Positions 823-3,086 of a stretch of DNA of 64,000 bases are shown piece by piece. Positions within the stretch are counted from its first letter, which is position 1. Every line of letters starts with the position of its first letter. The stretch is from Methanobacteriota archaeon (lineage in GTDB: Archaea; Thermoplasmatota; Thermoplasmata; Methanomassiliicoccales; UBA472). Where the stretch lies: NCBI GenBank assembly GCA_012729095.1, contig JAAYDU010000027.1, positions 1,238 to 65,237 of the forward strand, given 5' to 3'. The position numbers and the translations under genes are program-made. The notes under the pieces were generated by a model. It saw nothing but the letters and a program-made list of their open reading frames with translations, was not told where the DNA came from and did no database searches.

Positions 823-1401
823 TCACATCCTGATCTTCTTGGGCCGCACGCTCTCCCCATAATAGGGGTTCTGGAACTCGTCCCAATAGACCAGGAACTT
901 TCGGCGGAGGACCTCGCCGTCCGAGAGGCAGAAGGCGTCCATCTCCTTTCGCACGGGGTCCACCACCAAAGCGGTGTGGTATGGCCGGTCGAACATGCCC
1001 TTCTGAGTGGAGATGTCCGTGGAGGAGAGGAAGCAGCCGTGCCCGGGATGGGAGTGATACCATCCGACCAGCACGTAGCGGAACCTGGCGCACTCCAGGG
1101 AGGCGAACAGCGCCTCAAAGCCTTCCGGATCGAACCTAACGCTGACCGAGGTCGCCTCCAGATCGGTGGTGGCCACATCTCGCACCACGGTGTACTCCAC
1201 GCCCTGGTGGGTGAACACCTCACCGAGAAGGAAGCCCATGACCTCCAGGCCTTCCTTCACCTTGGAGAGGGCGTGATTGCGCACCTTCTCCTCGGCGGTC
1301 TTGAACAGGTACATCTCCGCCTTCTTGCCGGAATACATCGGCAAGGCCTCCTTGGGGAGCCATTTATGAGGCAGCGTCCTCTCCTGGGCCGGAGGGGACA
1401 T
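823..1401 (-). CDS. Rpn11/CSN5-like JAMM (MPN+) metalloisopeptidase of the ubiquitin-like cassette
   Basis: Carries EVMGFLLG (catalytic Glu) and [22 protein letters not shown], i.e. E...HxHx7Sx2D. The start is taken at the ATG at 1401 (MSPPAQ...), preceded by GGAGGTGGAGGAG. The longer track ORF to 1629 overlaps the E2 gene out of frame. Confidence 0.85.
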   Translation of the reverse strand: [192 protein letters not shown]

Positions 1402-1445
1402 CTCCTCCACCTCCAGGTCCTTCCCTCCCAGGATGACCGGCCCCT

Positions 1446-1952
1446 TCAATGTTTCACCACCTTCGGGGCGGGGACCACGATCAGGGGAGGCATTCTCCTG
1501 GGGGAGGAATTGAAGTACTGGGCAGCGGCGGTGCAGGTGTCGGTACCGAACGGGCTGCTGCCGTTCGGGGATATGAGTAGGGATTCCAGCCCCTTGATGA
1601 ATGTGGACAGCGTGGAATTGAAGGACCATTCCGAAAGCAGCTTGATGCAGACATGCCCCCCGTCCTCTGGCATCATGATATTGGGATGGAATATAGGCGT
1701 CCTCCAGATCACCAGCGGCTTTTCGAACGGGTACTCCCGGCCGATGATCAGCTCCATCCTGTGGCTGTAACGATAGGATATGTTCCCGTTCTCCATTACC
1801 GGACCAGGGGTGCCTTCCAGGGATATCTCCACCTTGAGAGGGAACCTCGTCAGATGCTCTTCGCTGTGATCGAAGTCGGGAGGGAGGTTGTGACGGCAGG
1901 CCTCCAACTCGTTCCTCAACCTGATTAGAAGTATCTCCAGGGGCAGGGTCAT
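1446..1952 (-). CDS. UBC-fold ubiquitin-conjugating enzyme (E2)
   Basis: 168 aa. [63 protein letters not shown] matches the UBC core (YPF.xP.V.F.T.I.HPNI...G.IC...L..W......LL..PN...P). HPN is at residues 89-91 and the candidate catalytic Cys is residue 102. The start overlaps the Ubl stop (ATGA). Confidence 0.85.
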   Translation of the reverse strand: [168 protein letters not shown]

Positions 1953-2194
1953 ATCTTCCCGCCCTCAGGGTCGGGTATCAGCTCCAGCTCCTCGTTCGAC
2001 TGTATGTCCAGTTCCTGCACCTTTTGCTGCCCCCTCAGCAAGCGCCGGCCCTTGCGTATGACATAAGCCCCTGGGTCCTTCTCCCAATAGGCCGAAACGC
2101 CCTCGATTATCTCCTCCACGGTGTTCTCCATCTCCAGTTCCATGTCGACCGTGGCCCCGGTCTCTGCGTTCCTGACCCTTACCCTTACCACCAT
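1949..2194 (-). CDS. Ubiquitin-like beta-grasp modifier precursor (C-terminus ...EGG-KI)
   Basis: 81 aa. The pattern MVVRVRVRN / ATVDMELE / helix [14 protein letters not shown] / AYVIRKG / ELELIP fits a beta-grasp. A di-glycine at residues 78-79 is followed by two extra residues. It sits between the E1 and E2 genes. Confidence 0.75.
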   Translation of the reverse strand: [81 protein letters not shown]

Positions 2195-2224
2195 TTTATC
2201 GGACCGGGCAATCCCTGGGGAGCA

Positions 2225-2260
2225 AGTATAATCCTTTCCATTAGAGTCAGTATTATGATA
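2225..2260 (-). promoter_or_regulatory. A/T-rich island in the E1-Ubl spacer, a possible internal promoter for ubl-E2-JAMM
   Basis: The minus strand reads ...ctgattatcataatactgactctaatggaaaggattatacttgc... about 30-65 nt upstream of the Ubl ATG (2194). This is the only A/T-rich patch inside the cassette. Confidence 0.3.
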
Positions 2261-2261
2261 A

Positions 2262-3086
2262 TCAGACAGCGGGATGGTTGGGGCACCCCTGATCTATGTC
2301 CAGGGACAGTATGTCACTGGTCCCCGCCAGGCCGTCGTAGTGCATGACATGCTCCATGACCGGACGATGGGAAACGATCTTAACGGCCTCCCGCACCTGC
2401 ACCGCGGCTATGATGCTGGTCGTCGTTATCTCGGCGGCCATCTTCGGCCGGTAGAAGACGGTGTCCTGGCCGGTGCAGCTGAACCGGCGTTCCATGACCT
2501 TGAAGTGGCTGCGGTTCATACCGCATTGAAGGCAGGGGGTCAGAGGGGGCATCACCACCTGCACCCTTCCCCGGAACCCGTCGGTGCCCCCGTCCACGTA
2601 CGGCACTCCGGCGTGATAGGAATTGGCGTTCAGATGAAGCCTCGCCGCCACGTTGTCCAGGCACCCCAGTATCAGGTCGTAGCCCTGCATCTCAACAGGC
2701 CCCAAGGATTGAACCCTTTCCTCGATGGCCTGGACCTCCGCCTCCGGATACAGGTCCCGCGCCCTTTCCGCCACCAGCGAGGCCTTGCCCCTCCCGGACC
2801 GCTGGTCCCCCTCCCGGAACAGCACGCAGCGGTTGAGGTTGGAACGCACTACCGTGTCCATGTCAAGAACGTCCACTTTCCGGAAGCCGAACAGCATCAG
2901 GTCCTTGACCGCCTCGTTCCCCAGCGCTCCGGCGCCGACCACGAGGACCCGGGCCCTCTGCACGCCCTCCATGTCCACCCAGGAGATACGCCTGGTCCGG
3001 TCGTGGCGGTCATCGTCCCTTTCCCCCGGGCGTATGGATTGGGGCATGGGAAACGGACCGCGCCCTGAGTATAAAACGAACGACAT
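2262..3086 (-). CDS. ThiF/MoeB/UBA-family ubiquitin-like activating enzyme (E1), adenylation domain only
   Basis: Carries the Rossmann loop VLVVGAGALGNE, LDMDTVVRSNLNR, CLDNVAARL, PYVDGGTDGFRGRVQVVMP and CLQC...FSCTG...CPNH. An alternative start is the ATG at 3047, which lies about 26 nt downstream of a TTTTATA element (see 3068-3078) and would give a leaderless mRNA. Confidence 0.85.
   Translation of the reverse strand: MSFVLYSGRGPFPMPQSIRPGERDDDRHDRTRRISWVDMEGVQRARVLVVGAGALGNEAVKDLMLFGFRKVDVLDMDTVVRSNLNRCVLFREGDQRSGRGKASLVAERARDLYPEAEVQAIEERVQSLGPVEMQGYDLILGCLDNVAARLHLNANSYHAGVPYVDGGTDGFRGRVQVVMPPLTPCLQCGMNRSHFKVMERRFSCTGQDTVFYRPKMAAEITTTSIIAAVQVREAVKIVSHRPVMEHVMHYDGLAGTSDILSLDIDQGCPNHPAV
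3068..3078 (-). promoter_or_regulatory. Putative TATA box for the E1 operon
   Basis: The minus strand reads cgTTTTATActc. The spacing to the ATG at 3047 is about 26 nt, as expected for an archaeal leaderless transcript. It lies in the divergent region shared with ppk. Confidence 0.3.

Follow-up and report, generated by a model that had tools for sequence, protein, structure and literature searches.

A predicted four-gene ubiquitin-type conjugation operon in the archaeal class Thermoplasmata

Discussion of eukaryote-type ubiquitylation operons in prokaryotes usually centres on Aigarchaeota and Asgard archaea and, for divergent forms, on bacterial defence systems. The ubiquitylation operon of Candidatus Caldiarchaeum subterraneum has been described (Nunoura 2011, PMC3082918; Hennell James 2017, PMC5654768), its cascade has been reconstituted (PMC5654768), and structures of its Rpn11-like protease and ubiquitin are available (6FJV and 6FNO). 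Maturation of the ubiquitin-like modifier (Ubl) by a JAMM protease was demonstrated for Caldiarchaeum (PMC5654768) as well as for the bacterial Bil system (PMC10557695). Here we describe a cassette of four genes on a 64,000-nucleotide (nt) stretch of contig JAAYDU010000027.1 (assembly GCA_012729095.1; the whole stretch is called the window below) from an archaeon of the order Methanomassiliicoccales. The cassette occupies positions 823–3086 on the minus strand and encodes an activating enzyme (E1), a Ubl, a conjugating enzyme (E2) and an Rpn11-like JAMM protease. We read it as a working ubiquitin-type conjugation and deconjugation operon that is vertically inherited in Thermoplasmata, and put the probability of this reading at about 0.72; its chemistry would follow that of the homologous systems of Caldiarchaeum and Bil.

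The four proteins and their genes

A first-pass annotation, made from the sequence, had proposed a module of an E1, a beta-grasp protein with a GG end, a UBC-fold E2 and an Rpn11-like JAMM protease. Profile, structure and comparative tests uphold this proposal. The E2 (1446–1952, minus strand; 168 amino acids (aa)) scores 54.1 bits against Pfam UQ_con (cut-off 27; E 1.6e-14; profile positions 1–123 of 140), and 241 eukaryotic E2 chains match it at E ≤0.01 in HMMER searches. In these alignments, the HPN motif (H89-P-N91, 1688–1680, minus strand) and Cys102 (1649–1647) fall on the catalytic positions of eukaryotic E2s, as had been noticed at first, with three extra residues after HPNI. Both are invariant among the orthologues compared (18–82), together with W109, P129-N130 and a second Cys, Cys140 (1533–1535, minus strand). 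Cys140 sits in a PFGTDxCTxAA segment at the start of the helix that follows the PN loop, and we know of no conserved Cys at the equivalent position in canonical eukaryotic E2s.

The second protein, encoded at 1949–2194 (minus strand; 81 aa), had been picked out as a beta-grasp protein ending in EGG-KI, and its AlphaFold2 model agrees with a fold of the ubiquitin/SUMO type. The model reaches a predicted local distance difference test (pLDDT) score of 90.5 from a 30-sequence alignment and has the order beta-beta-alpha-beta-beta-beta. When it was compared with the PDB in Foldseek, the top matches were SUMO2, ubiquitin, Hub1, ISG15 and Caldiarchaeum ubiquitin, with template modelling (TM) scores of 0.80–0.86, and structures of MoaD or ThiS were absent from the top 50. 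At the level of profiles, the Pfam ubiquitin family PF00240 matches 17 of 30 members of the Ubl family at E ≤0.01 (best 1.3e-05), as against a single ThiS match among the same 30. The Ubl carries its di-glycine at G78-G79 (codons 1963–1958), followed by a two-residue tail, K80-I81 (...PDPEGG-KI). ELIPDPEGG is invariant across the family; the tail beyond it is unconserved and comprises 0, 1, 2 (NR, SR, NK or, here, KI), 5–6 or 10 residues, with about half of the species ending exactly at GG. An invariant GG end with a variable tail is the pattern expected of a processed modifier precursor, from which the tail would be removed where present.

As regards the detection of conjugates, the last Lys or Arg ahead of the mature GG of the Ubl is K58, and trypsin would leave a remnant of 21 residues (1958–2020) on modified lysines. 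Trypsin-based diGly proteomics is therefore unsuitable for this modifier; a Glu-C cut after E77 would leave a Gly-Gly remnant.

The E1 (2262–3047, minus strand; 261 aa) matches Pfam ThiF with 159 bits (E 1.4e-46) and contains the strings GAGALG, LDMDTVVRSNLNR, CLDNVAAR and CLQC, so that its first identification stands. What had been overlooked is its reduction to an adenylation domain alone, of about 260 aa in the window and 235–301 aa in orthologues. Neither a Cys domain nor a C-terminal ubiquitin-fold domain (UFD) is present in the sequence alignment or in the AlphaFold2 model. The closest relatives in the PDB are human UBA2 (3.6e-26) and UBA3 (1.7e-25), followed by UBA1 (1e-19), MoeB (3.6e-15) and UBA5 (7e-10), and the alignment to UBA2 skips from residue 190 to residue 218, where UBA2 holds a Cys domain of about 220 residues. 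In line with this, the E1 model (pLDDT 82.6) spans whole MoeB/ThiF chains (TMt 0.83–0.86) and about half of UBA3.

The E1 retains the residues of an adenylating enzyme. In the numbering of the 274-aa frame, these are the nucleotide loop G51xGxxG56, D75/D77, R86, K101, D144 and the zinc ligands C185/C188 and C268/H271 (CxxC...CxxH). The candidate catalytic Cys is Cys204 in RFSCTG (codon 2475–2477), after which only about 14 residues remain before the chain returns to the Rossmann fold. All of these positions, Cys204 included, are invariant among 28–72 orthologues. The loop that bears Cys204 is of low confidence in the model, which suggests that it is flexible, as expected of a mobile crossover loop. 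The conserved N-terminus (D-R-x-x-R-x-R-R-I-x-W) resembles RYxRQ, the Arg-finger motif contributed in trans by MoeB and by inactive subunits of E1s. From this resemblance we infer, by analogy with established E1 structures, that the enzyme is probably a MoeB-like homodimer.

The last protein is the JAMM/MPN+ metalloprotease (823–1449, minus strand; 208 aa from a TTG at 1449), which scores 52.3 bits on Pfam JAB (cut-off 22.5; E 6.1e-14) and 31 bits on Prok-JAB (2.2e-07). Its noted closeness to Rpn11 and CSN5 was confirmed, with both among the best solved relatives. Yeast Rpn11 is the closest PDB entry (2.9e-16, 62.8 bits), human PSMD14 and CSN5 follow at about 1e-13 and the Rpn11-like protein of Caldiarchaeum (6FJV) at 4.9e-11 (45.7 bits); AMSH-type enzymes are far weaker. 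The active site comprises E53, H116-S-H118, S126 and D129 (numbering of a 192-aa form; motif at 1056–1015), and E53, H116-x-H118, S126 and D129 are conserved in 73 orthologues.

The open reading frame (ORF) list and the sequence place the four genes consecutively and in one direction, in the order E1-Ubl-E2-JAMM. All quoted motif strings, including those of the E2 and the JAMM protease, were found again, and the ORF positions, the 67-nt spacer between E1 and Ubl (2195–2261) and the 4-nt ATGA overlap of Ubl and E2 were exact as first noted. The 44-nt gap between E2 and JAMM was not retained, as it arises only from a JAMM start at ATG 1401, which is preceded by GGAGGTG and would give 192 aa. The 16 codons upstream of this ATG are kept as protein in relatives ([KR]xPxI[LIV]xG..E[VI]EE..PP), and many of these relatives have R, L, S, K or C in place of the Met encoded at 1401. 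Moreover, the JAMM gene of close relatives starts with an ATG that overlaps the E2 stop, and gene callers report 208 aa on metagenome contigs of identical sequence. Taken together, these observations led us to drop ATG 1401; the start is likely the TTG at 1449–1447, which overlaps the TGA of the E2 as TTGA and abolishes the gap. The Ubl, E2 and JAMM genes are thus coupled start-to-stop by the ATGA and TTGA overlaps.

A Shine-Dalgarno-like GGTGGTGA at 1461–1454 (minus strand) lies within the last, conserved E2 codons (..VV..), 4 nt before the TTG, and GGTG(A) is found at the equivalent site in relatives; it may serve as the ribosome-binding signal of the JAMM gene. For the E1, the longest ORF reaches 3086 (274 aa). 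Its start is most likely Met14 at 3047, which homology and gene calls both back. The spacer between E1 and Ubl contains a BRE/TATA-like (BRE, B recognition element) GAAAGGATTATA at 2238–2227 (minus strand), which places it some 35 nt ahead of the ATG that opens the Ubl gene. A GAAAG..TTATA/TTTAA motif stands at a matching distance in most of 70 orthologous spacers, and in some distant relatives the spacer measures just 12–13 nt. This suggests a candidate internal promoter, which would let Ubl, E2 and JAMM be expressed apart from the E1. Rfam and tRNA scans of the window yielded only a tRNA-Val at 23683, which is unrelated to the cassette.

Natural gene fusions among relatives support a functional link between the cassette proteins. 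Ubl and E2 are fused, with the GG kept at the junction, in the representative proteins P0370 (..ELIPDPTGG-A-NLPEDLL..) and P0428, and E2 and JAMM are fused in P0363 and P0380.

Distribution and inheritance in Thermoplasmata

All E2 homologues at 47–88% identity come from Methanomassiliicoccales or other Thermoplasmata, including Methanomassiliicoccus luminyensis, and an identical E2 with the same neighbours was found on 17 metagenome contigs. A scan with the E2 over one genome per GTDB species recovered relatives in 170 genomes. The best 80 of these 170 are all Thermoplasmata and belong to Methanomassiliicoccaceae, Methanomethylophilaceae and unclassified 'Thermoplasmata archaeon' bins. The cassette of M. 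luminyensis and other Methanomassiliicoccales agrees with that of the window in its four genes, their order and the SIS and AP_endonuc_2 neighbours, with identities to the window proteins of 57% for the E2, 71% for the Ubl and 60% for the E1. Among 82 loci from Thermoplasmata species genomes, the E1-Ubl-E2-JAMM order is kept in nearly all, and a convergent SIS-domain gene follows JAMM in 69. The divergence of the E2 from the window copy is tracked by that of the SIS neighbour (Spearman rho 0.79) and by that of E1, Ubl and JAMM (0.74–0.81).

Other neighbours of the cassette are aminoacyl-tRNA synthetases and ribosomal proteins and, in the window, a polyphosphate kinase/CHAD/Ppx cluster. An ordinary archaeal housekeeping neighbourhood had been suspected from the window, and the Methanomassiliicoccales host, the syntenic locus and the co-divergence with a housekeeping neighbour bear this out. 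A mobile origin was considered and rejected: relatives of the E2 are absent from the plasmid and phage collections searched, and IMG/VR returned giant-virus E2s only, at about 30% identity. From its genomic placement, we read the cassette as a vertically inherited core-genome locus of the class Thermoplasmata, neither mobile nor part of a defence island.

The polyphosphate genes of the window (3173–8995, plus strand) run divergently from the E1 and encode PPK1 (708 aa), a CHAD/metallophosphatase/Ppx-GppA_III fusion (730 aa) and Ppx-GppA (519 aa). This cluster stands beside the E1 only in the closest relatives (14 loci); elsewhere its place is taken by a tRNA-synt_1b (class Ib aminoacyl-tRNA synthetase) gene. 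The window itself begins inside the AP_endonuc_2 gene.

Further members of the E2 family were seen beyond the cassette. A search of representative proteins with the E2 gave 30 representatives at ≤1e-30, with standalone E2s next, from about 1e-19. The standing of the clade among other E2s is taken from such score gaps and from the tree of a 2023 preprint, cited below. The two E2-JAMM fusions differ in their makeup: in P0363 the HxH is degenerate (HSAP) and the protein also carries a long low-complexity tail and ends in a zinc ribbon at its C-terminus, and P0380, which adjoins grpE-dnaK, combines an E2 domain lacking the catalytic Cys with an intact JAMM domain and a PQQ-type beta-propeller. A separate family of 220–230 aa (P0391, P0397, P0400, P0403, P0416 and about 15 more representatives, as well as locus L099) carries an N-terminal ubiquitin-like domain without GG and an E2-like domain mostly without the catalytic Cys, similar to ubiquitin E2 variant (UEV) proteins. 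Within this family, P0397 stands alone beside a 1447-aa protein with a faint Prok-RING_1 match. At least four paralogues of the E2 family are spread over different contigs of the related genome GCA_964609045.1 ('uncultured archaeon SRP141376_co2_2'; loci L063, L101 and L102), among them a stand-alone E2 with no E1, Ubl or JAMM gene within 5 kb, and the E2 family appears expanded in this lineage.

Parts of the system have been reported before. NCBI names the orthologues of the E2 'ubiquitin-conjugating enzyme E2', and public databases label the Ubl 'hypothetical protein' and the E1 ThiF/MoeB; with the last two labels, routine annotation does not bring the system to light. Fort et al. 2015 (PMC4453063) list the Rpn11-like protein of M. 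luminyensis (WP_019177758) as one of two archaeal PSMD14 orthologues, and the archaeal E2/UEV tree of a 2023 preprint (10.1101/2023.07.25.550441) has a deep-lying 'Ca. Thermoplasmatota E2' clade. The Thermoplasmatota/M. luminyensis cassette is not listed by Grau-Bove et al. 2015. In a search of the ubiquitin literature for Methanomassiliicocc* and Thermoplasmatota, with subscription journals outside its coverage, we found no paper that describes the operon, the minimal E1 or their distribution. The initial suggestion of an undescribed variant hence holds for the operon as a system, and not for the E2, the Rpn11-like protein or the E2 clade, each of which had been named or reported.

The complete Ubl/E1/E2/Rpn11-like unit is a stable core-genome trait of a whole euryarchaeal class; methanogens of guts and digesters belong to it, as does at least one species in culture. 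As M. luminyensis is such a cultured host, experiments on the in vivo targets and the role of a prokaryotic ubiquitin system come within reach.

Proposed mechanism and rival explanations

We propose that the JAMM protease trims K-I after Gly79 of the Ubl. The minimal E1, probably acting as a MoeB-like homodimer, would bind ATP-Mg, adenylate Gly79 and bind the Ubl in a thioester with Cys204, in its flexible crossover loop. The Ubl would next be handed to Cys102 of the canonical HPN-type E2, which would put it on target lysines. This last step could be direct, as it is with Ubc9 and the bacterial Bil E2, or could involve an E3 from elsewhere in the genome. The same JAMM protease would take the Ubl off again. 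A housekeeping role of a proteostatic or regulatory kind is most likely and is favoured over an antiviral one.

Several points weigh against this reading. By sequence alone, the window Ubl reaches 17.8 bits on PF00240 (E 0.0028), below the gathering cut-off of 25.4 bits for Pfam ubiquitin. The catalytic activity of the cassette members is predicted from conserved residues, and the preference for a housekeeping role is drawn from genomic context. The E3 search used a Cys/His pattern rather than a profile scan, over 64 kb of the window genome and about 5 kb of flanking sequence in relatives. Finally, canonical E1s recruit and load their E2s through the UFD and the Cys domain. Transfer to an E2 from an E1 with neither would be unprecedented in exactly that form; UBA5-UFC1 and BilD-BilB, likewise without a UFD, come nearest.

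The rival explanation that survives best is a full E1-E2-E3 cascade as in Caldiarchaeum, of which the cassette would be only the core and whose RING or other E3 would be encoded elsewhere in the genome. The modification of substrates in Caldiarchaeum required the RING protein (PMC5654768). As read from its sequence, the window E2 retains the loop-4 Phe of YPFEKP and the N-terminal helix region, which bind E3s in eukaryotic E2s, whereas it has SFN where the SPA motif of loop 7 would stand. The 64 kb of the window are also all of the window genome that was available to the E3 search, and one distant Ubl-UEV relative adjoins the protein with the faint Prok-RING_1 match. However, neither a strict nor a relaxed RING-type Cys/His pattern was found in ORFs of at least 40 aa in the window and in the flanks of 92 related loci, so that the absence of an E3, remarked on from the start, holds over this range. 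No other treble-clef candidate lies close to the cassette, and the four-gene unit is stable across the class and never accompanied by a linked E3. CxxC-rich ORFs of the window were considered as E3s and turned out to be glutaredoxin-like, Trm112-like and RPA-like proteins and a zinc-ribbon membrane protein. On this balance, we judge a hidden E3 unlikely, while still a serious competitor.

Our reading of the cassette as a working operon can be carried further, tentatively and at rather less than even odds. The cassette would then be an ancient, vertically inherited Thermoplasmata system that makes do with a homodimeric E1 of MoeB size and a canonical UBC E2, lacking an E3, a Cys domain and a UFD, and would represent a living intermediate between the E2-less small archaeal modifier protein (SAMP) and Urm1 systems and the full cascade. 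The Rpn11-like protease may in that case form a bridge from tagged proteins to the archaeal proteasome or Cdc48. If this is true, E2 and Rpn11 chemistry of the eukaryotic type would occur beyond TACK and Asgard archaea, in a lineage with a cultured member. The stripped E1 and the missing E3 bear on the origin of E2-dependent conjugation from sulfur-transfer enzymes of the MoeB/ThiF type.

An antiviral module, in which E1, E2, Ubl and JAB protease would tag a virus structural protein during infection without an E3, is considerably less probable. The gene content of the cassette matches that of the BilABCD operons (types I and II), which likewise consist of E1, E2, Ubl and JAB protease, have no E3 and no UFD on the E1, and whose JAB protease removes a short unconserved tail after a conserved Gly of the Ubl (PMC10557695). 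The Bil E2 is nevertheless of a divergent CEHH type, whereas the cassette E2 is a canonical HPN protein of the UQ_con family. The Bil E1 is built from an inactive adenylation domain, an active adenylation domain and a Cys domain (IAD, AAD and CYS), as opposed to one domain here. Bil operons are sparsely distributed defence operons; the cassette occupies a single syntenic housekeeping locus in 69 of 82 species, co-diverges with its neighbour and has no plasmid or phage matches. Membership in a known defence system was rejected for want of a meaningful PADLOC match: the Bil models of PADLOC do not recognise the E2, Ubl or JAMM protease, JAB matches being marginal, and BilD alone matches the Rossmann part of the E1, weakly (1.1e-05).

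In several relatives, a large helicase of 1365–1608 aa (DUF4011, AAA_11, AAA_12 and MTES_1575) is encoded two genes beyond the cassette (locus L007, 12373–16507; L009, 10943–15040; L011, 11270–16096). Such a helicase could bear on defence and counts for the antiviral module; the equivalent position lies outside the window.

Weakest of all, and very improbable, is a sulfur-carrier or biosynthetic system of the MoaD/ThiS/SAMP kind, whose E1 would adenylate for thiocarboxylate formation with conjugation absent or secondary: archaeal SAMPs and Urm1 do have dual roles, public databases label the E1 a ThiF/MoeB adenylyltransferase, and its size and fold equal those of MoeB/ThiF, but the Ubl resembles ubiquitin/SUMO rather than MoaD/ThiS in model and profile and is translationally coupled to a UBC E2 with a conserved active site and an Rpn11-like isopeptidase, the E1 is nearer UBA2/UBA3 than MoeB and far under every NCBIfam equivalog cut-off for ThiF, MoeB and UbaA, and a rhodanese domain is lacking, as are MoaE and ThiG genes nearby.

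Comparison with known systems

Comparing the cassette with the Caldiarchaeum and Asgard operons reveals a ubiquitin-fold precursor with residues after GG and an HPN/Cys UBC E2 in common. The cassette is further Caldiarchaeum-like in having an adjacent Rpn11-like JAMM that is nearer to eukaryotic Rpn11/CSN5 than to archaeal desampylases, a eukaryotic-type E1 adenylation domain and a chromosomal operon. Among the differences, the window JAMM scores higher against yeast Rpn11 than against its Caldiarchaeum counterpart. In models, the Caldiarchaeum E1 has one inactive and one active Rossmann domain, followed by a Cys domain and, at the C-terminus, a UBL domain, and a C-terminal UBL/UFD marks the E1s of the Aigarchaeota/Asgard clusters I and II; the cassette E1 is a single adenylation domain. 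Caldiarchaeum clusters include a small RING E3 (srfp), which was found neither in the cassette or the window nor in the flanks of relatives. The gene order is also unlike that of Caldiarchaeum, where JAMM is divergently transcribed; in the cassette it is co-transcribed. The host belongs to Thermoplasmata (Euryarchaeota sensu lato), as opposed to the TACK and Asgard hosts of Caldiarchaeum-type operons. Lacking both the RING E3 and the multidomain E1, the cassette is therefore not a plain member of the Caldiarchaeum/Asgard type. Hennell James et al. described cluster III E1s without a UBL domain, regarded these as an earlier stage and proposed a step from UBL-less to UBL-bearing E1s (PMC5654768); the cassette E1 resembles this cluster III condition.

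SAMP/UbaA/HvJAMM1 and Urm1 share with the cassette a MoeB-sized E1 and a beta-grasp modifier with GG, and in the archaeon a JAMM protease as well. These systems lack an E2, whereas the cassette has one and its Ubl fold matches ubiquitin and SUMO first. The NCBIfam models agree with the distinction, as the cassette reaches 74 bits on UbaA (NF047750; cut-off 450) and 32.3 bits on the desampylase model (NF041370; cut-off 130). CBASS type II Cap2/Cap3 has an E1-like adenylation domain and a JAB protease in common with the cassette. However, in Cap2 the E1 and E2 are fused into one protein, which acts on a CD-NTase; in the cassette they have a gene each, and a CD-NTase is absent. In PADLOC, Cap2 models match the Rossmann region of the E1 only, at 1.6e-15 or weaker, and do not match the E2.

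The impression of the first-pass annotation that the E2 and the JAMM protease are eukaryote-like rather than Bil-like is supported, and the E1 agrees with it. The E2 passes UQ_con and has no PADLOC E2, BilB or Cap2 match, the JAMM protease scores higher on JAB (52 bits) than on Prok-JAB (31 bits) with Rpn11/CSN5 nearest, and the E1 is nearer to UBA2/UBA3 (4e-26) than to MoeB/ThiF (4e-15). In its mode of action, by analogy, the cassette probably works in the same way as Bil.

Among eukaryotic enzymes, UBA5 is like the cassette E1 in having a single adenylation domain, a homodimeric state (probable for the cassette E1), a Cys at the crossover-loop region and a dedicated E2 to load, with neither a Cys domain nor a UFD, and UBA5 structures are among the fold matches of the E1 (TMq about 0.75). 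The likeness to UBA5-UFC1-UFM1 ends at the sequence, which is nearer to UBA2/UBA3 than to UBA5 (1e-25 versus 7e-10), at UFC1, which lacks an HPN motif, and at the tail that binds UFC1, of which none is evident in the cassette E1. In its modifier, E2 and Rpn11-like protease the cassette stands with the Caldiarchaeum/Asgard operons; function-wise, it most resembles Bil and UBA5-UFC1.

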